NCBI GenBank assembly: GCA_050250895.1
Contig: JBFWNU010000001.1
Span: 192,001-256,000 of the forward strand
Source: Vulcanimicrobiota bacterium
GTDB lineage: Bacteria; Vulcanimicrobiota; Xenobia; Xenobiales; JADMJV01
Reading direction: 5' to 3'
Length of the DNA stretch: 64,000 nt
The translations under genes and the position numbers were made by a program. This document shows, piece by piece, positions 47,402 to 62,780 of this stretch. Every line of letters starts with the position of its first letter. Position 1 is the stretch's first letter. The notes beneath the pieces are model-generated. The model was not told the DNA's origin. It saw only the letters and a program-made list of their open reading frames with translations, and made no database searches.

Positions 47402-49240
47402 ATGGTCATCCGTCCCGGGCTTCCCATTCCTCAAGCCTACCGAGCAACCACAGCTCGGACGGCCGCTGTCGAGGCACCCGACCGGGTCGAACTGTCGACC
47501 ACTCCCCCTTCCTTGAAAGGCCTGCTGCTGGCCGGCCTGACCCCGGCTACCGGTATCCCCCTGGCCGGCACGCCCGTCTCGCTTGACTTTGCGACCCTGC
47601 ACTGGCCCGAAGCCGCCCGCCGAGAAGTGCGAGGGCACCTCGAGAGTCTCTCGCTCAGCGGCCGAGCCACCCCCACCGAATTGGCTCAAGCCGAACTGGC
47701 CAGAGCCCAGCAACTAGAGCCCCGCGTTACAACCGCCGACCTGGCCACCGCTATCGAGCGAGCCGCTCAGGCCACCGAGCTCAAACCCAATCAACACCAG
47801 GCGCTGTTCGGCTTCAGCCGCCTGATCGACGCCAAGTTCCACCTCAGTCCCGCCCTCATCGACAAGCTGGCCGGTAGCTGCGACCAGACCGCCTTGACCC
47901 GGATGATCGACGGCGGACCTGACGACGGAGCGCCGGTCTGGGCGCATCCGCGCAGCCCCGAAGAGTTGGTGGCCAGCCTGGTACGCCATCTGGTAGTGGG
48001 CCAGGGCTCGTCGCTGCAGCTCGGCCTCGACCACGGGCTGGCCGAATGGCTGGAGCAACACTTCGACGACTCCTCTCCCCTAACCCAGGCGGTGGGTGGG
48101 GCCGGCGCTTTCTGCGCCAACCTCTCGGCCGCCCTGCCCGAGGTGAACGGATGCTTCTTCGCTCCCGGCAAGCTGTCGAACCGATTAGCCCAGAGATTCT
48201 CGCCAGAACTCCAGGCAGTGGATGAAAGCGGCCGAGCCTCTGGGCCCGACGGTCAGATCGACCCCGGCCTCAAAGAGCGGGTAAACTACGTGGCCGAATA
48301 CCGCCAGGGCGAGAGCTTCGAACTCTTTGGTAACCAGCAGCTCAGCCTCAACGGGCAGGTGCGCGACCTGCAGGTCAGCGGAACCTCGCGAGTCATCCTG
48401 GGCACTCCCACCAACCTCAATCCAGATTTCGGCCACACCAGCGACAGCGTAGCCCGGCAGTTGGCCGCTGAAAACGATGTCTTCTTCGTCTCGGGGGCCC
48501 ACTACCTGACCAAACGGCCAGAAGCCGAAGCCGAAGAGTTCGCGGCCCGACTGCTGGCCATGAAAGACGAGAATCCCGAACTGGTGCGCCACAACCAGTA
48601 TGTGGTTCCCAAAGACCCGGCCACCGAAGCCCAGCTCTATCGCCACCTGCACGGGGCCTTCGACTCGATGTCGCTCAATGCGGTGGAAATGGCCGGAGTG
48701 CTGGGTCGCCTGGCCGACGACGGGCAGACCGACTGGAATGGCGAGCGATTTCCCGACCCGACCACGGCCGAAAGCCTGAAGTTTCAGCTCGACTCGGCTT
48801 TAGAACTGAAGTCGGCTCTCGACTTGCAGCGTCTGCATGTGCACAGCTACAGTGGCGACCTGCTGGTTCTACAAGGCCGGCAAGCTCCTGATCGACAGCG
48901 CCTGGCCCTCTTGCGGGCCCGCCAGGTGGCCGCCATGAAGACCGCTAACGACAACGGAGAGATTCGCTCTCCGAGTGACCTCTGGCCCATCTTGCCGATG
49001 GTGGACGCGCGTGGACTGGCGGGCCTCTATCGCTTCGCCGACGCCATCAGCGAGCGCTTCGGGCTCGATGCCGACCAGCACGCTGCGGTGGTGAAAGACT
49101 GGCACTATCACGATGCAGCCAGCCAGACGACCTTCTTGTTCTCGCCGGCCCGAGCCCTGCACGACAAAACAGGGGGCACCGTCAGTCTGGGCGATACCAT
49201 CGACTATACGGCCCTGGCTCACGGATACACACCGGCATAG
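47402..49240 (+). CDS. ADP-dependent glucokinase/phosphofructokinase family protein with N-terminal extension
   Basis: GGAGAFCANL, VNYVAEY, SGAHYL, SMSLNAVE, RLHVHS and TVSLGDTI motifs. Confidence 0.8.
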   Translation: MVIRPGLPIPQAYRATTARTAAVEAPDRVELSTTPPSLKGLLLAGLTPATGIPLAGTPVSLDFATLHWPEAARREVRGHLESLSLSGRATPTELAQAELARAQQLEPRVTTADLATAIERAAQATELKPNQHQALFGFSRLIDAKFHLSPALIDKLAGSCDQTALTRMIDGGPDDGAPVWAHPRSPEELVASLVRHLVVGQGSSLQLGLDHGLAEWLEQHFDDSSPLTQAVGGAGAFCANLSAALPEVNGCFFAPGKLSNRLAQRFSPELQAVDESGRASGPDGQIDPGLKERVNYVAEYRQGESFELFGNQQLSLNGQVRDLQVSGTSRVILGTPTNLNPDFGHTSDSVARQLAAENDVFFVSGAHYLTKRPEAEAEEFAARLLAMKDENPELVRHNQYVVPKDPATEAQLYRHLHGAFDSMSLNAVEMAGVLGRLADDGQTDWNGERFPDPTTAESLKFQLDSALELKSALDLQRLHVHSYSGDLLVLQGRQAPDRQRLALLRARQVAAMKTANDNGEIRSPSDLWPILPMVDARGLAGLYRFADAISERFGLDADQHAAVVKDWHYHDAASQTTFLFSPARALHDKTGGTVSLGDTIDYTALAHGYTPA

Positions 49241-51083: not shown

Positions 51084-51509
51084 GTGAAAGTTCTACCTTA
51101 TCTTTGCTTTGAAGGCCGCGCCCAGGAGGCCATCGATTTTTATCAGAAGGTGCTGGGGGCCGAAGTGACCATGCTGATGCGGGGCAAAGACGCCCCCGAG
51201 GGGGCCTGCGCGGGCGGCAATCCCCGTGAGTATGCCGACAAGATCATGCACGCCGAGCTAAAGCTGGGCGATGACCGGTTGCACGTCAGCGACGGCATGA
51301 ATACCGGCCAGGCCGAGTTCAAAGGGATCACGCTGTCGGTGGCGTTGAGCACTGACGATGAGGCCAGGAAGAAATTCGCCGCTCTGTCGGAAGGTGGCGA
51401 AGTGCGTATGGCCCTCTCCGAGACCTTCTTTGCCTCGAGCTTCGGAATCTGCAACGATAAGTTCGGTGTGCCGTGGATGGTGCTGGTTCCCAGCCACGTG
51501 CCGGCTTAA
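51084..51509 (+). CDS. phnB: VOC family PhnB/YjdN protein
   Basis: PYLCFEGRAQEAIDFY, IMHAEL and DKFGVPW motifs; SD AAGGAG. Confidence 0.9.
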   Translation: MKVLPYLCFEGRAQEAIDFYQKVLGAEVTMLMRGKDAPEGACAGGNPREYADKIMHAELKLGDDRLHVSDGMNTGQAEFKGITLSVALSTDDEARKKFAALSEGGEVRMALSETFFASSFGICNDKFGVPWMVLVPSHVPA

Positions 51510-52855
51510 GGCTTACGCCGCAAAAAGAGAGCCGCCCCGGCCAGTCCCAGGCCCCCGCCGGCCAGTGTCAACCCGAGCAAGAGATTGCTTCTGTCCTGTT
51601 CGTGCCGGCGGGCCTGGGCCATGGCCTGATCGACCAGTCGGTAGAGATTGGGATCGCTAACCTTGAGAGCCTCGGGGTCGGTCTTGAAGCTGCGCACCCC
51701 GTCGGCAAAATACTCGCCCACCTGGGTCAGACCGTAGTCGGTATTGCGGGGGCCGCCACAGCGGGCCGTCTGATTGGCTTGCGAAAAGGCTTCGTCAAGC
51801 TGGGCTGACCATTCTCGATAGAAAGCCGGCTCGACCTCGCGCAGGCGCGCCATCAAGGCGTGCCCCGTCTCGTGACGGGTGGTGTGGCGGGTGCCCAGAG
51901 TGTTGGCGTCAACCTGCAGCAGGCCGTCGCTTGAGGAGTGGAAGCCGTGGGCTCCGCCGGTCAGGTGGTCGAGATTGAAGCTGGGGTGAACCCGCAGTGC
52001 CACCCCTTCGGAGGGGTATGCATAGCGGGCGGCTGGCACGAGGATGGCCTGGCTTTCGAGGTCGACGGCCGCTGTCAACCTGCCTCCCGCGGCCATCTCG
52101 ACCAGCGAGCGATACTCGGCTTTCTCGTTGTCGTCGCGCGCTCCGCTGCGTCGCACCAGGCCGGCCACATCGAACCGACCCTCGACGACCACGGTCGGGT
52201 CGAGTCCGGCCTGGCGCACCTGTTCGAGCAGAAACTGGTGGCGTTGGCTGCGGGCCTGCTCTAACGGGCTCGCTACGGGAGGGGCGCAAGGGTCCGGGCT
52301 GGGCTGCCCGGCGGCTTCTTCCGCCAGACGCTCGATGCGCTCGTTGAGTTCCAACAGCCGTGGATGCACGGACAGTTCTTTGCCCAGTCGGTCCAGGGCG
52401 TTGGCCTGCTGCACCAGAGTGGTCATCGGCACCGACCGGGTGTGGCGTCCGTGCTCGCGCAAGACTTGCAAGGTCTGGGCGTCGGACTCGGTCACCTGAA
52501 TCTCGGTCCCGGCCCGAGCCACGAAGGTCAACTCGTCGCGGTCGAAGGCAGCTAACTCGTCCCCCAACTCGATTCGTTGCCGGGGCGTTAGATCGAGATC
52601 GCGAGCGGTCATCTGAGCCACCGGGTCTTGACCGGCGTAAGAGGCGCCGGCACCCAGGGCCACGCTCAGCGACGAGAGAATGGCCAGTCCGTGCCAGAGC
52701 TTGGAATAGCGGGCCAGACGAGAGAGAATAGGTCGACTGGCCGGAACTGGCTGGTTGATGGTGACCTGGTCGACGGGGTCGGGCGCGGGGTTCTCAGACC
52801 GGTGTGCTTTGGCCGGCGGCAGAAACGGACCGATGCCCGAAACTCTCGATATCAT
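51506..52855 (-). CDS. Zinc metalloprotease of the anthrax lethal factor/Pro-Pro endopeptidase-like type with C-terminal membrane anchor
   Basis: HETGH, downstream Y..EYFAD and DPNLY motifs; C-terminal TM helix plus RRK. Confidence 0.78.
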   Translation of the reverse strand: MISRVSGIGPFLPPAKAHRSENPAPDPVDQVTINQPVPASRPILSRLARYSKLWHGLAILSSLSVALGAGASYAGQDPVAQMTARDLDLTPRQRIELGDELAAFDRDELTFVARAGTEIQVTESDAQTLQVLREHGRHTRSVPMTTLVQQANALDRLGKELSVHPRLLELNERIERLAEEAAGQPSPDPCAPPVASPLEQARSQRHQFLLEQVRQAGLDPTVVVEGRFDVAGLVRRSGARDDNEKAEYRSLVEMAAGGRLTAAVDLESQAILVPAARYAYPSEGVALRVHPSFNLDHLTGGAHGFHSSSDGLLQVDANTLGTRHTTRHETGHALMARLREVEPAFYREWSAQLDEAFSQANQTARCGGPRNTDYGLTQVGEYFADGVRSFKTDPEALKVSDPNLYRLVDQAMAQARRHEQDRSNLLLGLTLAGGGLGLAGAALFLRRKP

Positions 52856-52895: not shown

Positions 52896-53444
52896 TCAGG
52901 CCGCCGCGGTGGCGGCCACGACCGAGAAGAGAAACTCCTCGTAGCTCTGACCCTGCGAGTGAAGGAACTGGGTCACGAAATTCAAGCCTAACTGAACCTG
53001 CTGCTTGGGGTTGGACACCTTCTGCTCCTCGGCCAGGATAGCTGCATAGATCGGCTCGACGGCAGCGATGGCGGCCCGGGCCGGGCAGCGCCGGCTGGAG
53101 TGATAGCCTATGATGGTCTTGTGATCGGGCCCGAAGGTGGGCGAGACGTGGGCCAGCACCCAATAATGGTCGCCGCCTTTGCACATGTTGAGGACATAGG
53201 CGAAAATCTCGTTACCGGCCCCGATAGTGTCCCACAACAGGGCAAACACCGAGCGAGGCATACCCGGATGGCGAATGAGGTTGTGGGCCTCTCCCAGGAG
53301 TTCTCTCTCGGTGTAGCCAGCTACCCGCTGGAAGACCGGGTTGGCATAGGTGATGATCCCTTTGGAATCGGTCTTGCTGACAATGATCTCGTCGGTGCCG
53401 AAGCGTCGTTCGACGCCGGTCGGCTTGAAAGTCGGTACGGCCAT
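52896..53444 (-). CDS. Stand-alone Aer-type PAS domain protein
   Basis: IVSKTD..ITYAN, HNLIRHPGMP and YWVLAHV motifs. Confidence 0.9.
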   Translation of the reverse strand: MAVPTFKPTGVERRFGTDEIIVSKTDSKGIITYANPVFQRVAGYTERELLGEAHNLIRHPGMPRSVFALLWDTIGAGNEIFAYVLNMCKGGDHYWVLAHVSPTFGPDHKTIIGYHSSRRCPARAAIAAVEPIYAAILAEEQKVSNPKQQVQLGLNFVTQFLHSQGQSYEEFLFSVVAATAAA

Positions 53445-53475: not shown

Positions 53476-56100
53476 TTAGCCCCACAGTTGCCACCACTTT
53501 TTCTTGGTTGCGGTCGGCTCGGGCAAATCGGGTTCGGGTTCGGGGCAGGTGGCTTCGGGGTAGTTGGCCAGGGCTTCATCCAGCGAGCGTTCATCGCTGA
53601 CCACGTAGGCGATCGGACAACCCGTAAGTTCTTCGAGATAGGCGCGCTCATAGGGGGTGCCGGGACGCTGGCAGGCCACCACCAGACTCTCCCCCGCGAG
53701 AGCAACCGGCATGACTCGGTATTCGCGGGCTCGCTCCGGGCTCAAGCGAGCTGCGGCGGCCGGGTCGCAGGGGGTCTCGTCAAAGAAGAAAGGGAGCAGC
53801 CCGAACTGCTGGGCCAGGGCCCGGGTGCGCTCCCGGGGAGAGAGTTCTGGCAGCCCCTGCGGCACGGGCTCCGGTTCGGGTGCTGGCGGTTCCACCGACA
53901 CTTCGGGGGCAGCCTCTTCGACCCGGTCGACAACCTCGAACACCTCGATATTGTCGCGATTGGTGCCCACGGCTCGATAGCTGACCACCTCGTGGGTGCC
54001 ATCGGCCGTCTGCTTGCTGACCCTCACCCGACCCACCGGACATTCCTTCTCGAGGTGTCCGGCCACATCCACCGTCGAACTCGTGAATTCTCCGAGAGAG
54101 CGGCGCGGATCGTAGTAGACCTCTCCAGTGTGCACGCCCACCCGGGCCAGCAAGGGTCCGTCCATACCGGGATAGCGAGTCTCGCTCAGTTCACGCTGGA
54201 TCTCGACCGCCGCCAGCACCGCCTGGTCGGGCCGCCTGAAGATGCATACGACTCCGTCGCCTGACCAGCCGAACCGCTCGCAGTCATAGCGCTCGACCAC
54301 GCGATTGACCAGGGTGCGAAAATCACGAAAGGCGCTATCCACCAGCAGCGGACGATCGGGGCGCTTGAGTCGCGACGAACCGGCCATATCCAGAGCCAGG
54401 ATCGAGAACTCGCGCTTGAAGCAGGTGTCGATGGCTCGGTTGAGGGTGGTGCTAGTGGCTACCGCCTCATCCAGACTCACCTTGCCCGCCTCGAGTTCCT
54501 CGAGATAGACCTGCATCGAGCCCGAAACGACCCCTTCCATACCGGCCAGCAAACATTCGCGCATCTCGCCGGCCGAGGCGAAACGCTCTTCGGGGTTGGC
54601 CGATAGCGAGCGCAACAAGGGGCTCACCAGTCCCTGAGGAATGGCCTTGAGGCGGGCTTTGAGCACGGCTGGATCAGCACTTTCGGGCGGCGACCCTAGC
54701 AGCAGTTCATACAGCACCAGGCCGGCCGCGTGCAGGTCGGCTCGCCCGTCGGCCGGCTGACCTGCAGCGGCCTCGGGCGACTGGTAGTCGGCCGACACGT
54801 AGAGCGAGCCGCGCGGGTAGGCAAGCAATGGCTGGCGTGTTTGGGGCCGGGCTGGCAAAAGGTCCAGACACGCCCTCAGCCGGCTCGCCACCTCAGTGCT
54901 GGTGGGCCGCAAGGCGGGCTTCTTGCGCAGCATGTCATCGAGCAAAGAGTCGAGTTCTCCCGGCAGCTCGGGGCGCAACTCGGCCAACCGGGGCGGGGGC
55001 TCGTTGATATGAGCGTGGAGTAGCTCGAACTGCCCTTTGCCGGTAAAGGGCAAACGCTCGGTCAGGGCCTCGAAGAGACAAATCCCGAACGAGTAAACAT
55101 CAGCCGCCGGGGTCACCTGACTGCTCAAGATCTGTTCGGGGGCCAGATAGGCGTACGAGCCGAGGATCTTCCCTGCTTCGGTCAAACGAGTCTGGCTGTC
55201 CAGGGGGCGAACGGTGCCCAGACGGGCTACTTTGGGACTGCCGTCCACCCCGGCCATGACGCTTTGAGGACAAAGATCCCGATGGACGATGCCGCGACTG
55301 TGCAGATGCTCGAGCCCATCGGCAATCCCGCAGAAGACCTCCAAAATGGTGGCCGGGTCTTTGCCGGCGGTCATGGTCTTGAGATCGGTGCGATCGAGAA
55401 ACTCCGAGACCAGATAGGGACGGTCGTCGTGGCGCCCGACTTCCAGGAAGCTGACCACATTAGGATGAGAAAGAGCCGCCATCACGCGGGATTCTCGCTC
55501 GAAGCGAGCCGAGTCACCCGATTCTTTGAGCAGCTTGACCGTCACCTCGCAGCCGTTGAGCCGGTCGAAAGCCTGATAGATGTCGCAACCGGCGTCTCCG
55601 CCCAGGTCGGCCAGCACCTCGAAGCGAGAAGGAAGCACGCCGTTCTGACCCGGTTCTCCGGGCTGCGGACGGGCCACGCCACTTAGCCCAAAGTCGCTCA
55701 GGGCCACCCGATCGTTGGCGCCCAGCAAGACGTTGCCGGGATGCAAACGACCATGCACTATCCCTTCCGAGTGGGCGTAGTCAAGACCGGCCAACACCTG
55801 CTCGATCAACCTCAGGGCTCGCTCGGGCGCGACCGGCTTGGCCAGCGCCCTCAGGTTGGAGCTGAGTCGCTCACACACCAGGTAGGGGTGGAGCCGTTCG
55901 CCGGCGTCATAGATGGTGACGATATTGGTATGGCGCAGTCCGGCCTGACGGCGTAGGGCCTCGAGCAGTTCGGCTGACTTCTGGCTGAAGACCTTGACCA
56001 CCCGAGGCTCTTCCAGCAACTCGTGACGAGCCGAGTAGACCAGCCCCATGGGACCGCTGCCGATGAGTTGACCCAACTGGCAGTTGCCAAAACTATCCAT
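53476..56100 (-). CDS. Nested double protein kinase, class III nucleotide cyclase and MshEN-like domain protein
   Basis: Two Hanks kinase motif sets; LDMAGSS, GDG and RVGVHTGEV; C-terminal T2SSE_N-like domain; KKKWWQLWG tail. Confidence 0.88.
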   Translation of the reverse strand: MDSFGNCQLGQLIGSGPMGLVYSARHELLEEPRVVKVFSQKSAELLEALRRQAGLRHTNIVTIYDAGERLHPYLVCERLSSNLRALAKPVAPERALRLIEQVLAGLDYAHSEGIVHGRLHPGNVLLGANDRVALSDFGLSGVARPQPGEPGQNGVLPSRFEVLADLGGDAGCDIYQAFDRLNGCEVTVKLLKESGDSARFERESRVMAALSHPNVVSFLEVGRHDDRPYLVSEFLDRTDLKTMTAGKDPATILEVFCGIADGLEHLHSRGIVHRDLCPQSVMAGVDGSPKVARLGTVRPLDSQTRLTEAGKILGSYAYLAPEQILSSQVTPAADVYSFGICLFEALTERLPFTGKGQFELLHAHINEPPPRLAELRPELPGELDSLLDDMLRKKPALRPTSTEVASRLRACLDLLPARPQTRQPLLAYPRGSLYVSADYQSPEAAAGQPADGRADLHAAGLVLYELLLGSPPESADPAVLKARLKAIPQGLVSPLLRSLSANPEERFASAGEMRECLLAGMEGVVSGSMQVYLEELEAGKVSLDEAVATSTTLNRAIDTCFKREFSILALDMAGSSRLKRPDRPLLVDSAFRDFRTLVNRVVERYDCERFGWSGDGVVCIFRRPDQAVLAAVEIQRELSETRYPGMDGPLLARVGVHTGEVYYDPRRSLGEFTSSTVDVAGHLEKECPVGRVRVSKQTADGTHEVVSYRAVGTNRDNIEVFEVVDRVEEAAPEVSVEPPAPEPEPVPQGLPELSPRERTRALAQQFGLLPFFFDETPCDPAAAARLSPERAREYRVMPVALAGESLVVACQRPGTPYERAYLEELTGCPIAYVVSDERSLDEALANYPEATCPEPEPDLPEPTATKKKWWQLWG

Positions 56101-57838: not shown

Positions 57839-58933
57839 TTACAGGTTCTGCGGGCAAAAGCCCACGGCGGCCAACACCCCAAAGGCCAACGTCAAGAGCA
57901 CCATCTCGCGGGGCAGAAGGTCGCAACCCGGTCCCCGCGGCAAGGGACCAGAGAAAAGGTGAAATACCGCCCTGGCCAGGGTCACGGCGTTGAGGGCGCT
58001 GGCCCCCAGCAAAGCCAGCGCGAAGCCGGCCTGGTGGTGGACCAGCGGTTGGACCAGCAGGTCCTCGGCTACATAACCAAGAGTGCCGGGCAGCCCGACT
58101 GCCACCAACCCGGAAAAGAGAAACGCGGTCGACAGCCGGGGCATGGCTTCGAAACTGGCCGCAAAACGATCCAAGCGGGGGTCTTCGCCGTAACGCACCT
58201 CGACCAGTTCGGCACAAAGCGCCCAGCTCACCGTCGCCACAGCCAGCAGCACCACCAGCGTGCCGACGGCCCCGGGCGCCCAACCGACGGCCATCGCCAA
58301 CATCCCGACCTGGGAAAGGACAAGGCAGGCCACGGTCCGGCGCAGTCGGCTCTGCGCGCTGGCCAGGACAGCCCCCGACAGCATGGTCAAGGCTCCCAGG
58401 GGGCCCATCCAGCCCACGGCGTCGTGGACCACCACCAGGCCCGCGCCGAGAAAAGCCACGGCCACCGGGGTAGGCCCTCGTTCGAAGCTGTTTAACAGCC
58501 AGCTGTGCAAAGGCACGAGGCCGAGTCGCACTGCCAAACCCACAGCCACCAGCTCCGGTTGCTCGCAGGCCAGTCCCGCCCCCACGCTCAGGCTGCTCAA
58601 AAGCCCGGCCAGAGCGAGCCCCCGCGAAGGCGAGAAGCGATACATCAACAGCCAGCCGAGCGCACCGGCCGCCAGGGGCTGACCGGCCGCTCCCAGCCAG
58701 CCGGTGGCCAGCAGCAACTGGGTGTAAACCAGGCTGCGGGTCGTAGTCCGCGGCTGACTGGCCAGCCCCACCGCTAACAGGCCCACCAGCCCCAGCCACC
58801 AGCTCGCTGTGAACAAGCCCGCCACCAGGGCCAGGGCCGCCCCCACCATTCCCCGACGCCGCGCACTCGGGATCCCGCGCCCATGGCCAAGGCCCGCGCT
58901 CAGACAGAGAGTCAGCATGCTCAGCCAAGCCAT
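57839..58933 (-). CDS. Proton-conducting membrane subunit (NuoM/N-like), third gene of the DAB operon
   Basis: RLGLVPLHSWL and GLPGTLGYVAEDLL motifs; overlaps the dabB stop. Confidence 0.85.
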   Translation of the reverse strand: MAWLSMLTLCLSAGLGHGRGIPSARRRGMVGAALALVAGLFTASWWLGLVGLLAVGLASQPRTTTRSLVYTQLLLATGWLGAAGQPLAAGALGWLLMYRFSPSRGLALAGLLSSLSVGAGLACEQPELVAVGLAVRLGLVPLHSWLLNSFERGPTPVAVAFLGAGLVVVHDAVGWMGPLGALTMLSGAVLASAQSRLRRTVACLVLSQVGMLAMAVGWAPGAVGTLVVLLAVATVSWALCAELVEVRYGEDPRLDRFAASFEAMPRLSTAFLFSGLVAVGLPGTLGYVAEDLLVQPLVHHQAGFALALLGASALNAVTLARAVFHLFSGPLPRGPGCDLLPREMVLLTLAFGVLAAVGFCPQNL

Positions 58934-60141
58934 CGCGAAAACCGCCTTTCCAGCCCGTCGAGTCCCCGAGCCAGACGGAGCCAGGCCGCCACGGCCGCCT
59001 CGAGCGCCTCGTCGACATAGAACCGGGCCAGGGCCAGAGCGTAGAGTCGGGATTGCAGCGTCGGCGGGAAAATCCGCTCGAGATGGGCGCCCATGCGAGG
59101 CAACTCGCCCAGGGCTTGTTCGAGTTCGTGATAGTCGTGAAGCAAACTGGGCGAGCGCAGAATCTCGAGAGTGCGCACCAACCCGTGGCCCAGCATATGC
59201 AGCAGGGCCAGATGCTCGAAGCCCAGCCCGAGCTCGACGAAGATCAAGCCCGACTGGGTCATGGAGGCATAGGCCAGAGCGTTCTTCACGTCGGGCTGGA
59301 CCCTTCCCACGACGGTGGCATAGACAGCGGTGACGCTGCCCGTCAAGACCAGAGCCAGGCTGGTCGGCCACGAGGAAGCTATCAGCGGGGCTACGCGCAG
59401 CAGCAGCAGGGGTCCGAGATGAATCGAGATGGCTCCGTAAAAGATAGCGCTCGACGGGGTCGGCCCTTCCATGGCGCGGGGCAACCAGCCCCCCACGGGA
59501 AACTGGGCCGACTTGCCCATCGCCGCCAGCACCAGCAACAGTCCAATCAGGTGACGATCGAAGGCTTGCCCGGGCAGGGCGAGTCCCATCAGGCGGGTGG
59601 TGCCGGTGGTGTGATGCAGCCACAACAGCCCGGCCAACAGGCCCAGATCACAAACGCGATAGGTGACGAAGGCGCGCAGACCGTGACGGGCGGGACCGGG
59701 ACGGTGAGCAAAGAAGCCAATCAAGAGGGCCGACGTCAGGCCGACCAGTTCCCAGCCGACCACGAACAGGTCCAGATTGGCCGCCAGGGCCACCGTGATG
59801 ACTCCCGCGCCAAACAGGCTCAGCAGCAGGTAAAAGCGCAAAAAACCCGGTTCACGGTGAAGATAGCGGGCCGAAAACAAACCCACCAGACCCACCATGC
59901 AGGCGGTGAAGGTGGCAAAGGCCAGACCCACCGCATCAAACTGCAGAGCCAGCTCGAAATTGGCGTACCACAGGCCAAGCTCGAGGACGGCCGGACCGCC
60001 CATCAGGCAGGCCAGACTGGCGGCCGTGAAGGCGAGCGCCACGAGCAGACTGATCCTGCCTTCGCCAGGCTTGCCCCCGAACCACCAACAGGCCATCAGG
60101 ACCAGAAAGGCCAACACCGGACCGAGAACGACCAGGCTCAT
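58921..60141 (-). CDS. dabB: DAB inorganic carbon pump membrane subunit (NuoL-like)
   Basis: WELVGLTS, KSAQFP..WLPRAMEGPTPSSA and DVKNALAYAS motifs; ATGA overlap with dabA. Confidence 0.9.
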   Translation of the reverse strand: MSLVVLGPVLAFLVLMACWWFGGKPGEGRISLLVALAFTAASLACLMGGPAVLELGLWYANFELALQFDAVGLAFATFTACMVGLVGLFSARYLHREPGFLRFYLLLSLFGAGVITVALAANLDLFVVGWELVGLTSALLIGFFAHRPGPARHGLRAFVTYRVCDLGLLAGLLWLHHTTGTTRLMGLALPGQAFDRHLIGLLLVLAAMGKSAQFPVGGWLPRAMEGPTPSSAIFYGAISIHLGPLLLLRVAPLIASSWPTSLALVLTGSVTAVYATVVGRVQPDVKNALAYASMTQSGLIFVELGLGFEHLALLHMLGHGLVRTLEILRSPSLLHDYHELEQALGELPRMGAHLERIFPPTLQSRLYALALARFYVDEALEAAVAAWLRLARGLDGLERRFSRWLG

Positions 60142-62780
60142 CGTGACAGGCTGGCCGGAGCCAGCGGACCTCGCTGGCCGCGAAAGTAGGCTACCGAGTC
60201 CGTGGCCTGGCTCACCCTCGGCCGGGGCTCGTAGCCGCGGACGCCGACCGCGGTGTGTTTGACCATCTGGCCGCTGTCCGGATTCCAACTGGTCAGCCAG
60301 AGCCAGCCGTTGTCGACCAGTCGGGCCAGAGCGGGCAGCCGCTCGAGCAGACGTTCCAACAGGTCGGCCGGGGCCTCGATCACCAACAGCAGGCGGACCG
60401 GCTCATGGATCTCGACCATCTGCCAGGGCAGACCGGTGCGCAAATCCGACGAGTGCCCATCCATCACCCCCAGTAATCCTACGATGTTATGGGGAAGCTT
60501 GGTTCCGCACCCAAACCCGTTGGGGTCGACGTAGCTGAAGTAGTATTCGAGGTTGATACCGGCCCCCACCGGAGCTACCGACTGCAATAGCTTCTCTAAC
60601 TCGACCCCATCGGGGTCCTGATGATAGTCGTAGGAGACCAGGAAGGCTCGCCGGTCAAGAAACAATCCGCGAGTACTCTGTCGTCGCCCGATAATGCACA
60701 TCGAGTTGGTGGCATGACCATACTCGGGCCGGGGCTGGGCCAGGTCCACGGCCCGGGCCTGGACGTGGGCCAGGCAGCGGCCGGGGCTCCAGCCCACATC
60801 GGCCGCGTCGAAGCGTCGGCAGCGTTCCTGGGCGTCGAGTTGGCACGCCTGGCCGAAGGCCCGCTGCATCCCTTTCACCTTCTCGGCGAACGGTTCGGGA
60901 CACAGGTCCAGATCGTAGTAGGTCAAGGCATCGTCGCAAGTGTTATGATAGGCTCCCACGAACCAGGTCGAGGCCGGGAAGCCCAGCCGTCGACGCACCT
61001 CGGGATGGTTGGCCATCATAGCCAGAGCCCGGGCGTTCGGTCCCCCTCGACCTCCTCCGCAGGCTCCACAGTCGTGGGCGGCTTCGTGCGGGTTATTGAG
61101 ACTGCTCGAGCCGTGCCCGACCACCACGACCAGGGGGGCTAGTTCTCTTAGGCCCACGGCCTTGAACACGCTCTCGACCACCCCGGCCATCTCTTCGGGA
61201 GTATAGCCGGGCCACCAACCGTGCTCGCCAGGCTGCGCCCCGGGCTCGCGTTCGAACAACAGACGAGTGGCGGGACGGCGACCTTGCAAGCTCAGCTTGG
61301 TCTTCTCGAACAGCCGACTGAACATCACCCGCCCAACCAGTGGCAGGGCCGCCCCCACTCCCACCAGAGACGAGAGAAGGCCGCCTCGCAGCAGGCTGTT
61401 GCGACTGGCCCGCCAGACCTGCTTGAAACTGCCCCAGTGGCGGCGCCGGTCGGGCTCCAGGGCCACCTCGCGCACCAGGTGGGTGGGCTCGACACTCACC
61501 GGACACAGCGGCAAAGGGTGGTGGTCCTCCAGACCCTGATAAGCCATCGCCAGGCCGAAAAAGCCGGGGTAGCCGAAGGTCTCGACCGCGCTGTTCTCTT
61601 CCAGATGGCGCCTTAGCGACTCGCAGCGCTCGTCGATGCAGAAGATAGCCTGAAACTCTGGAGCCTTGGCGGGCTTGGGAGTGTGACTGGCCAGGGCATC
61701 GAGGATGGTGCGGCGATAGCGACGCTCATAGGCCAGATGGAGCAGCCGCCGTCGCTCCAGTTCGCCGAAGGCTGCCACCTCATCGAGAAAGCCGCTCAAA
61801 TCCTGCAGTTGGGCCGGCCCGAGGCCGGCAGCTTGAGCCACCAACAGAGCTTCATAGGCCAGTAGCCGATCTGGTCGAGCCTCTTCTACGACCGGCTGGA
61901 GTGTATCCACCTCGAGCAGCAGCATGATGGCCAGAAAGTCCAACAAACGAACGGGCCCCACCGGACCGGGGGCCAGCTCGGGATGAAGCTCGAGACGGAA
62001 GATCATGCCGGCCCAGCCCCGCAAGCTCAACAAACGACCCTCGATGAAGGCCGACCAATCCTCGACTCCCAGCTTTTCGAGGCAGGCCAGCACGGCGTCT
62101 TCCGGGCACCCGTAGTGGCTTCCATAGAGGGCTCGAAAGGCAGCGAACAGGCCTTCTTCTCGGTTGGGCATGGGCCAATAGGCCAGCCCACAATCGAGAT
62201 AGGCAGCACAGAATCGAATCAAGATCGGATGGGCTAACTGATCGTTGGCTGGAGGAACGAGCCTGGCTGGGCGGCTGGGCAAGGCCTGGCACAGACGCTG
62301 CCAAAGGTCTCCCAAAGCCCGCTCCGGGGAACTTCCGGCCAAAAAGGCGACTCCGGCCTCGGGCTCGATCCAGTCGGCCAGACGGCTCAAACCCTGGCCT
62401 TCGGTGAGATGCCATTCAAGGGCACACCCGTCGGGCAAGCGCAAGGGCCACTGTAGACGCGCCAGGCGAAGCCGCCGACGACAGCCAAAGGCCGTCTCTT
62501 CCGGGGGACAGTCGAGCACCGCCTCGAGATCCTCCGGCAGAATGCGGCCCTGGGTGAGAGCCCGATGCATCTCTGCCAGGCCAGGGTAGCCCTGGGTGCC
62601 CAACTTGCGGGTCGCCTCGGCCACCGCCTGGTCGAAAGGCAGGTGCTCGAGATGGTGCAGAGGGTTGTGGTGGACGAAGCGGCGCAAAGGCGCCTGCTCG
62701 GGAAGCAGGTGAGTGGCCTGAGCAAGAGCAGCCTGAATTCTGGCCAGGTTGTCCTGGTCGCAGCGGCGACGTAAGTTCAT
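60138..62780 (-). CDS. dabA: DAB inorganic carbon pump soluble subunit (DUF2309)
   Basis: FVHHNPL; Zn ligands in FCIDER, GHGS and DCGAC; RPEYGH and HEPVRL motifs. Confidence 0.93.
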   Translation of the reverse strand: MNLRRRCDQDNLARIQAALAQATHLLPEQAPLRRFVHHNPLHHLEHLPFDQAVAEATRKLGTQGYPGLAEMHRALTQGRILPEDLEAVLDCPPEETAFGCRRRLRLARLQWPLRLPDGCALEWHLTEGQGLSRLADWIEPEAGVAFLAGSSPERALGDLWQRLCQALPSRPARLVPPANDQLAHPILIRFCAAYLDCGLAYWPMPNREEGLFAAFRALYGSHYGCPEDAVLACLEKLGVEDWSAFIEGRLLSLRGWAGMIFRLELHPELAPGPVGPVRLLDFLAIMLLLEVDTLQPVVEEARPDRLLAYEALLVAQAAGLGPAQLQDLSGFLDEVAAFGELERRRLLHLAYERRYRRTILDALASHTPKPAKAPEFQAIFCIDERCESLRRHLEENSAVETFGYPGFFGLAMAYQGLEDHHPLPLCPVSVEPTHLVREVALEPDRRRHWGSFKQVWRASRNSLLRGGLLSSLVGVGAALPLVGRVMFSRLFEKTKLSLQGRRPATRLLFEREPGAQPGEHGWWPGYTPEEMAGVVESVFKAVGLRELAPLVVVVGHGSSSLNNPHEAAHDCGACGGGRGGPNARALAMMANHPEVRRRLGFPASTWFVGAYHNTCDDALTYYDLDLCPEPFAEKVKGMQRAFGQACQLDAQERCRRFDAADVGWSPGRCLAHVQARAVDLAQPRPEYGHATNSMCIIGRRQSTRGLFLDRRAFLVSYDYHQDPDGVELEKLLQSVAPVGAGINLEYYFSYVDPNGFGCGTKLPHNIVGLLGVMDGHSSDLRTGLPWQMVEIHEPVRLLLVIEAPADLLERLLERLPALARLVDNGWLWLTSWNPDSGQMVKHTAVGVRGYEPRPRVSQATDSVAYFRGQRGPLAPASLSR

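Follow-up and report, generated by a model that had tools for sequence, protein, structure and literature searches.

A putative pseudokinase nested within the activation segment of a second pseudokinase in a cyclase-homology protein of a Vulcanimicrobiota bacterium

The stretch of DNA analysed here (the window; 64,000 nucleotides, positions 192,001 to 256,000 of contig JBFWNU010000001.1) belongs to the genome of a Vulcanimicrobiota bacterium and harbors, on the minus strand at window positions 53476-56100, an open reading frame (ORF) whose translation comprises 874 amino acids (aa) followed by a stop codon. The host genome (9.5 Mb in 17 contigs) is 99.6% complete; the gene is located on a contig of 3.9 Mb, and the G+C content is even across the window sequence (0.60-0.67). 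A previous sequence-only reading had described the product as a kinase placed inside the activation loop of another kinase and fused to a class III cyclase, an MshEN-like domain and a Trp-rich tail; the ORF and all the motifs that it quoted are present in the 874-aa translation. The gene and its product (P0001) are referred to below as nested, and the two kinase domains as outer and inner. The parts of the gene, with the evidence used to delimit them, are the following.

53476..56100, minus strand: whole nested gene, one ORF, with orthologs P0002 (92%) and P0003 (83%).
55669..56100, minus strand: outer pseudokinase, part 1, aa 1-144 (N-lobe, alphaE, catalytic loop HGRLHPGN, DFG).
55636..55668, minus strand: tether 1, aa 145-155, predicted to be disordered (predicted local distance difference test, pLDDT; low identity between orthologs).
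54862..55635, minus strand: inner pseudokinase, aa 156-413, a complete and contiguous Hanks-type fold (Pkinase and hidden Markov model, HMM, matches).
54805..54861, minus strand: tether 2, aa 414-432, predicted to be disordered (pLDDT; reduced identity between orthologs).
54535..54804, minus strand: outer pseudokinase, part 2, aa 433-522 (P+1/APE, here YQSPE, and alphaF to alphaI).
54418..54534, minus strand: helical linker from the outer kinase to the cyclase-homology domain, aa 523-561 (model helices, family conservation).
53923..54417, minus strand: class III cyclase-homology domain, aa 562-726 (family profile against the Protein Data Bank, PDB; Pfam 19.8-22 bits).
53845..53922, minus strand: Pro/Glu-rich linker, aa 727-752 (pLDDT below 50 at aa 728-752).
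53560..53844, minus strand: GSPII/MshEN-like alpha/beta sub-domain, aa 753-847 (PF05157, E 2.4e-10).
53479..53559, minus strand: Pro/Glu-rich tail with the KKKWWQLWG end, aa 848-874 (comparison with the WWGW motif of the family described below).

Pfam matched the whole protein to Pkinase over three stretches, to MshEN and, weakly, to Guanylate_cyc. When scanned alone, aa 1-150 matched positions 3-149 of the Pkinase profile (E 1.3e-18) and aa 151-424 positions 3-258 (E 2.3e-38); aa 425-530 matched positions 157-199 with E 2.4e-4 and 21 bits, which does not reach the gathering score of 31.7 bits. A custom kinase HMM, built from 29 relatives of the inner domain, placed aa 9-140 at positions 7-147 (77 bits), aa 156-413 at positions 1-264 (285 bits) and aa 433-518 at positions 162-260 (30.9 bits, E 2.5e-9). 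The split kinase match flanking an intact one, as expected from the sequence-only reading, was therefore retrieved, together with the complete second kinase said to occupy the gap: the two outer pieces are separated by about 288 residues, and the points at which they break off and resume (HMM positions 147 and 162) are complementary within about 15 profile positions. The insert lies between the DFG motif (136-138) and the APE equivalent (441-443) of the outer kinase, so that the order of the parts along the chain is N1, N2-C2, C1, which is not that of a tandem arrangement. The outer N piece was matched by 79 of 80 unrelated bacterial kinases and the outer C piece (about aa 431-520) by 74 of them; these were ordinary kinases coming from the contig scan with the family alignment, which was keyed on generic kinase peptides, and their use was confined to filling alignment rows and to this test. 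The best matches of the inner domain among solved structures are StkP/PknB (E 3e-35).

The host genome contains about 75 kinase matches, including a 634-aa paralog (L003:1168-3069, minus strand) that is un-nested: its canonical kinase is in one piece, and the linker and cyclase-like domain known from the nested protein come next. In BLASTP comparisons, the outer N piece (aa 5-142) aligns with residues 10-159 of this paralog (35% identity, E 3e-22) and the outer C piece (aa 431-522) with residues 169-275 (40% identity, E 7e-18), the identity of the inner kinase to it being only 30%; the spacing between the two outer matches is 9 residues in the paralog versus about 288 in the nested protein. 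The outer pieces are colinear in all the nine complete members of the un-nested family, with 8-11 residues between them, and the identity of the family is 31-40% to the outer N piece, 39-43% to the outer C piece plus the cyclase-like domain, and 26-32% to the inner kinase. In alignment A7 the family rows stop at DFS-I-A and restart at G-x-x-I-G-T-P-E-Y-M-A-P-E, thus flanking the insert. The same alignment revealed that, between alphaF and alphaH (the alphaG area, aa ~472-487), every family member has about 13 residues more than the outer C-lobe, whose shortening could remove a substrate- or partner-binding surface.

The un-nested family, which turned up in 9 genomes when 300 others of the phylum were sampled, shares a ground plan composed of an active-looking Ser/Thr kinase, a helical linker, a cyclase-homology domain, a Pro-rich linker, a WWGW motif and a membrane region. 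Its kinase has DFS in place of DFG and keeps all the catalytic residues, and neither an inner kinase nor a GSPII domain is present. The nested protein resembles this family in the homologous outer kinase, in the linker (helices 529-537 and 543-561 in the model, with invariant S/D/A/I-D/F positions in alignment A6), in the cyclase-homology domain (39-46% identity) with its D-x-A-G-H signature, and in the C-terminal Trp motif; it differs in that the family kinase is contiguous, with its catalytic residues in place, and the family proteins end in a membrane region (about 85 aa). The members observed, all uncharacterised, are the loci L003 and L104-L112 and the proteins P0128, P0129, P0132, P0133, P0142 and P0146; some family members carry zinc ribbons, and P0131 has an FHA domain instead.

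A quick IQ-TREE phylogeny of 68 kinase rows, in which the outer halves were joined in silico and the only support is the Shimodaira-Hasegawa-like approximate likelihood ratio test (SH-aLRT), placed the outer kinase within the un-nested family clade (SH-aLRT 99, stem 1.81) and the inner kinase within a different clade, formed by kinases of the same bacterial family and order (SH-aLRT 97 and 100, stem 0.79). The nearest relatives of the inner kinase share about 50% identity with it. According to this quick tree, the outer and inner kinases would have two different origins.

In order to assess whether the outer halves might form one domain, aa 1-150 and aa 425-530 were predicted as two chains, using our own 55-row alignments A4 and A5. 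The interaction prediction score from aligned errors (ipSAE) was 0.86, versus 0.00 for the best of three controls; the 0.86 mark is reached by 58 of 80 solved complexes and by 2 of 110 mismatched pairs, counts that are only rough, own alignments having been used. Across the three two-chain runs, the contact agreement was at least 78% and the pLDDT of the partner at least 79. The predicted interface is the canonical core of the C-lobe, with alphaE and the catalytic loop (83-124) facing APE, alphaF and alphaH-I, including the H116-D455 contact. Since kinases are abundantly solved, a pass at 0.86 denotes likeness to the kinase fold, possibly through memory of solved kinases, and is not a proof for this copy. 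With this proviso, the outer halves are predicted to form one kinase fold, in line with the assembly that the sequence-only reading had proposed. An AlphaFold2 model of aa 1-530 (alignment A9, 18 rows) has a mean pLDDT of 73.7 and a predicted template modelling score (pTM) of 0.50; pLDDT is 91-92 in the outer alphaE and 73-90 from the outer alphaF to alphaI, and falls below 50 at 143-153 and 419-438, i.e., the tethers, and at 294-314, the inner activation loop. The full-length model (alignment A7, 16 rows) displays the same pattern with lower values (pLDDT 65.7, pTM 0.35), pLDDT being below 50 at aa 137-156 and 418-437. The alignments are shallow because MAFFT misplaced the rows of richer sets: it stacks all the kinase rows onto the inner domain whenever whole-kinase rows or many C rows are included, and the placement was correct only with nine N and four C rows (A7) or, on aa 1-530, with two whole family proteins in addition (A9). 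The inner domain has only three rows in these fold alignments, and anchor rows derived from the window brought no improvement in a local test. A Foldseek search with the full-length model retrieved PknB (template modelling score by target 0.74-0.81) without indicating a query range; the match is presumed to concern the inner domain, and such PknB-type matches have no bearing on the nesting. A bilobal kinase fold can be recognized in the outer domain (HMM 7-147 plus 162-260, predicted assembly) and, contiguous, in the inner one. As far as sequence and prediction allow, the domain-in-domain topology can be regarded as established.

Both domains had been described as pseudokinase-like, and each of them actually lacks several catalytic residues. 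The outer kinase keeps the beta3 Lys (K36), the Asn of the catalytic loop (N123) and D136-F137 of the DFG motif, along with the structural residues E443, D455 and R506. It has Q52 for the alphaC Glu, R118 for the HRD Asp and H120 for the catalytic-loop Lys; at each of these positions at least 90% of the 55 aligned rows have the canonical residue. The inner kinase keeps the beta3 Lys (K189), the alphaC Glu (E203), H273-R274-D275, APE and D334. In it, D169 stands for the second Gly of the Gly-rich loop (G-loop), C277 for the catalytic-loop Lys, S280 for the Mg-binding Asn and R293 for the DFG Asp, all positions that are canonical in 29 out of 29 relatives. Neither domain possesses the set of catalytic residues of Hanks-type Ser/Thr kinases (PF00069) and both are, by the sequence definition, pseudokinases. 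The idea that their defects are complementary holds in that the outer domain keeps DFG and has lost the HRD Asp, the inner one being the reverse; however, it is too neat, because each domain has lost several residues and both have lost the catalytic-loop Lys.

The distribution of the nested architecture was then analysed. A word-indexed protein search scored the 8000 candidates with the most shared words, and among the best 120 of them only P0002 and P0003 match end to end, all the others having a coverage of 44% or less. P0002 (875 aa, from Logan) shares 92% identity with the nested protein; P0003, a partial sequence from an NCBI metagenome-assembled genome labelled Candidatus Eremiobacteraeota, shares 83%. 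Both of these homologs keep the nesting and every degenerate motif. Compared by region, P0003 and P0001 share 91% identity over the inner kinase, 88% over the outer N piece, 78% over the outer C piece, 83% over the cyclase-like domain and 85% over the MshEN-like domain; the values are 53% at aa 145-161 (tether 1), 67% at aa 406-432 (tether 2) and 66% at aa 726-772 (the Pro/Glu-rich linker region). Judged from these sequences, the nesting is real and maintained. An exhaustive phmmer search against 1.84 billion representatives retrieved 931,682 proteins at E of 0.001 or less; among the best 150, the whole architecture occurs only in the cluster of the query itself (1972.7 bits), followed by giant tandem multi-kinase proteins (up to 429 bits) and by the un-nested family (up to 318 bits). 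The giant proteins P0121-P0127 are 1536-2911 aa long, with four to ten kinase domains in tandem. Of 267 retrieved proteins, 3 have the split, whole, split pattern, namely the three orthologs. A metagenome scan with P0001 yielded only one distant relative (29%), and only ordinary kinase clusters were matched in the ESM Atlas. P0058, a 52% match from Eremiobacteraeota, was discarded: it is not nested and is an ordinary kinase related to the inner domain. A phrase search covering 8.1 million papers and 0.36 million preprints gave no described example of a kinase nested in a kinase. The absence of a precedent that had been surmised is therefore borne out by this search and by the best 150 protein matches. 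The sole match to the kinase-insertion wording was a preprint on the structure of THEMIS CABIT2.

As for the part of the protein following the kinases, the Guanylate_cyc score is 19.8 bits for the whole protein and 22.0 bits for the C-terminal piece, the cut-off being 21.9. The fold was more clearly recognized with an 11-row profile of the family cyclase domain, which matched the solved structure 3mr7 (E 4.5e-15) and 25 further PDB chains at E up to 1, among the matches being CyaC (E 5.7e-8), Ma1120 and AC8/AC9; the class III cyclase-like domain previously noticed (PF00211) is thus solid as a fold. Its two metal-binding Asp residues, D571 and D615, do not vary in the family and coincide with the D and the GDG of 3mr7 and CyaC. 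The positions of the Asn and Arg of 3mr7 are occupied by D678 and H682, giving D-V-A-G-H for N-x-A-x-R, and that of the cyclase Lys by G611, so that the Asn, the Arg and the substrate-defining Lys are all missing. From the cyclase literature, we take the Asn/Arg positions to serve the transition state and the Lys position to define the adenine substrate. The D/H replacement noticed earlier is not peculiar to the nested protein: it is invariant in 11 out of 11 family rows and, on this alignment, is a family trait rather than a decay of the nested protein. Because of this invariance, "cyclase" may be a misnomer for the whole un-nested family.

The MshEN-like domain noted earlier was confirmed by Pfam (PF05157, 38.2-40.7 bits versus a cut-off of 23.1 bits), although only as an alpha/beta sub-domain. 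It aligns only to residues ~49-160 of PilF/PilB/MshE, starting from 49 in the case of MshE. In PMC5013675, the cyclic di-GMP (c-di-GMP) site of MshE is described as R9-Q32 plus R38-Q61, two 24-residue motifs of the form RLGxx(L/V/I)(L/V/I)xxG(L/V/I)(L/V/I)xxxxLxxxLxxQ. A regular-expression search with a relaxed version of that pattern found no match in P0001, P0002 and P0003. The domain is therefore like the MshEN/GSPII domains of MshE, PilB and PilF in its Pfam match and in the stretch aligned, and unlike them in lacking the c-di-GMP motifs and in not being carried by an ATPase. Relative to the ground plan of the family, it represents an insertion. Its closest relative in the genome (aa 757-850, 47%) is the first MshEN domain of a PilB-like ATPase, the one fact from which a link of the nested protein to pili or to a type II secretion system would follow, so that this link is circumstantial. 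The PilB/GspE-type ATPase (1247 aa, G000:C10:65319-69059, plus strand, read as L115:1820-5560; T2SSE E 1.4e-124) itself contains, flanked by its N-terminal MshEN domains, a domain of the Ser/Thr kinase type (aa 432-643, E 1.7e-29).

A WWGW-type motif occurs in 15 of 17 family members, directly before a hydrophobic region of 80-90 residues, and a transmembrane-like span is found in 16 of the 17; the nested protein has none and stops at KKWWQLWG, the C-terminal end that had been quoted before as KKKWWQLWG. On this comparison, the Trp-rich tail is a vestige of the pre-membrane motif of the family, the membrane anchor having been lost.

The nested gene is followed on the same strand by two further genes.

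52896..53444, minus strand: stand-alone PAS protein, 182 aa (PAS_3, E 5e-11), starting 31 nucleotides past the stop of the nested gene.
51506..52855, minus strand: third gene of a putative operon, 449 aa (HExxH, hydrophobic segments, weak Peptidase_M90 match), 40 nucleotides downstream of the PAS gene.

No terminator-like site was found between the nested gene and the PAS gene, and the two genes are probably co-transcribed, judging from the spacing. No homologs of the PAS protein or of the third gene product were found in the flanks (about 1.5 kb) of 10 un-nested family loci. The PAS protein has one paralog elsewhere in the genome (63%, G000:C4:16105-16641, minus strand), and no ortholog was found in genomes G001, G003 and G005 with the PAS protein of the window as query. 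Hence, in the 10 family loci and in the searches for PAS orthologs and paralogs, no conserved neighbourhood backing a functional link between the nested gene and the PAS gene emerged. Elsewhere in the window, a DabA (E 3e-221) and Proton_antipo_M pair at 57839-62780 (minus strand), a few kb from the nested gene, corresponds to a DAB-type inorganic-carbon uptake system, and a 612-aa protein at 47402-49240 (plus strand) contains an ADP-specific phosphofructokinase/glucokinase region (E 3.9e-17), a family better known from archaea.

On the whole, we consider it moderately probable that the nested architecture and a non-catalytic role as a switch or scaffold hold together; the architecture is what the comparisons disclosed, and the mechanism is what we infer from sequence and models. 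Relative to the ground plan of the family, a complete kinase from another local clade was inserted in this lineage between the DFG and the APE of a resident kinase; the inner kinase hangs on two flexible tethers, and the resident kinase is predicted still to fold from pieces about 288 residues apart. Two further changes concerned the C-terminal part, i.e., the insertion of a GSPII/MshEN-type alpha/beta domain into the Pro-rich linker and the loss of the membrane region. Both kinase domains would then have lost catalytic residues, because of which the protein has most likely ceased to phosphorylate anything. Given that K36, N123 and D136 are kept, nucleotide binding may persist in the outer pseudokinase; the inner one occupies the place of the activation loop, and its position might respond to nucleotide, to a partner kinase, or to the phosphorylation of Thr residues kept in its own activation loop. 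The conserved helical linker would relay the state of the kinase part to the cyclase-homology domain, and the GSPII domain and the Trp-rich tail might provide docking to a membrane or partner. A bolder version, which we put forward as a tentative and on balance doubtful proposal, is that the inner pseudokinase acts as a folded, regulatable stand-in for the activation loop, whose phosphorylation or binding by a partner kinase would form, with nucleotide binding by the outer domain, a two-tier allosteric relay that sets both the state of the cyclase-homology domain and GSPII docking.

Some observations weigh against the switch-or-scaffold explanation. Pseudokinase status is predicted from sequence, the structure predictions were obtained on alignments of 16-18 rows with a mediocre full-length model, and the outer branch is very long (1.81) in a tree that is quick and supported by SH-aLRT only. 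Moreover, the nesting is known from three close sequences only, and the nested gene was not found in any of 40 genomes of related species, one of which belongs to the same genus and is 98% complete; for this reason, the architecture might be a lineage-specific oddity of little consequence. According to PMC4718504, CASK lacks the DFG Asp and still phosphorylates its substrates in a cation-independent way. The main competing explanation is accordingly that one of the domains, most plausibly the inner one, is an atypical, CASK-like and cation-independent active kinase, so that the nesting regulates a real enzyme. The inner domain is the best conserved part of the protein (91%) and keeps K189, E203, D275, APE and a Thr-containing activation loop. 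However, it has lost both the Mg ligands (S280, R293) and the catalytic-loop Lys (C277) and has D169 in the G-loop, and all its 29 relatives keep the residues that it has lost; we therefore regard this explanation as unlikely, even if worth keeping in mind. Less probable still is that the protein is a functionless recent fusion that is drifting, the nesting being an accident tolerated in one lineage. The narrow distribution (no other cluster among the best 150 representatives), the catalytic residues gone in both kinases and the very long stems (1.81 and 0.79) would fit such a fusion. Against it, three assemblies, the most distant at 83% identity, have an undisrupted ORF, the domains are conserved at 91/88% versus 53/67% in the tether regions, the degenerate motifs are identical in all three orthologs, and the structural keystone residues of both folds are kept.

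Other explanations concern the architecture itself. Given that tandem multi-kinase proteins are common among the matches (e.g., P0121, with six domains, and P0124, with four), the gene might be the remnant of a tandem array, in which a truncated, a whole and a truncated kinase follow each other and the outer pieces are unrelated and do not fold together. This appears very improbable, since the break points (147 and 162) are complementary within about 15 HMM positions, both pieces come from the same family, the C piece continues into the linker and cyclase-homology domain of the family, and the predicted assembly scores 0.86 versus 0.00 for the best control, with the caveat of kinase-likeness. 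We give equally little credit to a composite active site, in which the DFG and Asn of the outer domain and the HRD Asp of the inner one would complement each other across domains. The residues kept by the outer (K36, N123, D136) and the inner domain (K189, E203, D275) would suit it, but each domain is predicted as a complete kinase with its own cleft, both are without the catalytic-loop Lys, and we know of no precedent for a kinase active site shared in this way. The least credible explanation, to which practically no weight is assigned, is an assembly chimera, which the sequence-only reading had named as an outcome that would undo its interpretation. The gene is not such a chimera because two independent orthologs (92% and 83%) share the nesting; in addition, it is located on the 3.9-Mb contig with even G+C content, and a 151-nucleotide contig of another public run, perhaps from a closely related sample, bridges the first junction (55598-55746) with two mismatches. 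A look-up of sequencing runs brought up no RNA run and one DNA run, which shared 0.05 of the sampled words; the 11 short contigs obtained, most of them less than 90% alike, leave large parts of the gene without cover, a gap that has no bearing on the question.

An entire second kinase fold, kept under constraint within the activation segment, which is the main control element of kinases, shows that the kinase fold tolerates a folded insert of about 290 residues at this regulatory centre, and the protein may serve as a natural template for insertion-based allosteric switches. It also represents a rare bacterial case of paired pseudokinases, and the presence of the un-nested ancestral form in the same genome allows a before/after comparison for the origin of pseudokinases and of domain topologies. 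The two-tier relay, if true, would be a natural counterpart of engineered domain-insertion switches and the first kinase-in-kinase signalling module. The work also reveals an uncharacterised family combining a kinase, a D/H cyclase-homology domain and a WWGW membrane region.

The architecture can be compared with some known systems. The "split kinase domain" of receptor tyrosine kinases (PDGFR, KIT, VEGFR, FGFR) is similar in being an interrupted kinase domain; what interrupts it is a short kinase-insert region located elsewhere in the fold, and not a kinase domain. Tandem kinase-pseudokinase proteins include JAK JH2-JH1, GCN2 and the plant tandem kinase proteins. These share with the nested protein two kinase folds per chain, at least one of them a regulatory pseudokinase (as for JAK2 JH2 in PMC4718504). 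In these proteins, however, the domains are sequential, whereas in the nested protein one encloses the other and both appear to be inactive. When compared by shared folds, membrane guanylate cyclases, too, have a pseudokinase, with a functional ATP site (PMC4718504), adjoining a class III cyclase domain. They differ in that they are eukaryotic receptors with a single, un-nested pseudokinase and a competent cyclase. As regards the site of insertion, the nearest structural analogue is Greatwall/MASTL, whose insert is largely disordered. As reported in PMC11961639, this protein is one working kinase in spite of a very long insertion (550 aa) within its activation segment, the insert being a non-conserved middle region and the host an active eukaryotic AGC kinase (PMC11961639). 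In the nested protein, by contrast, the insert is a folded kinase domain conserved at 91% between orthologs, and the host is a bacterial Hanks-type pseudokinase.

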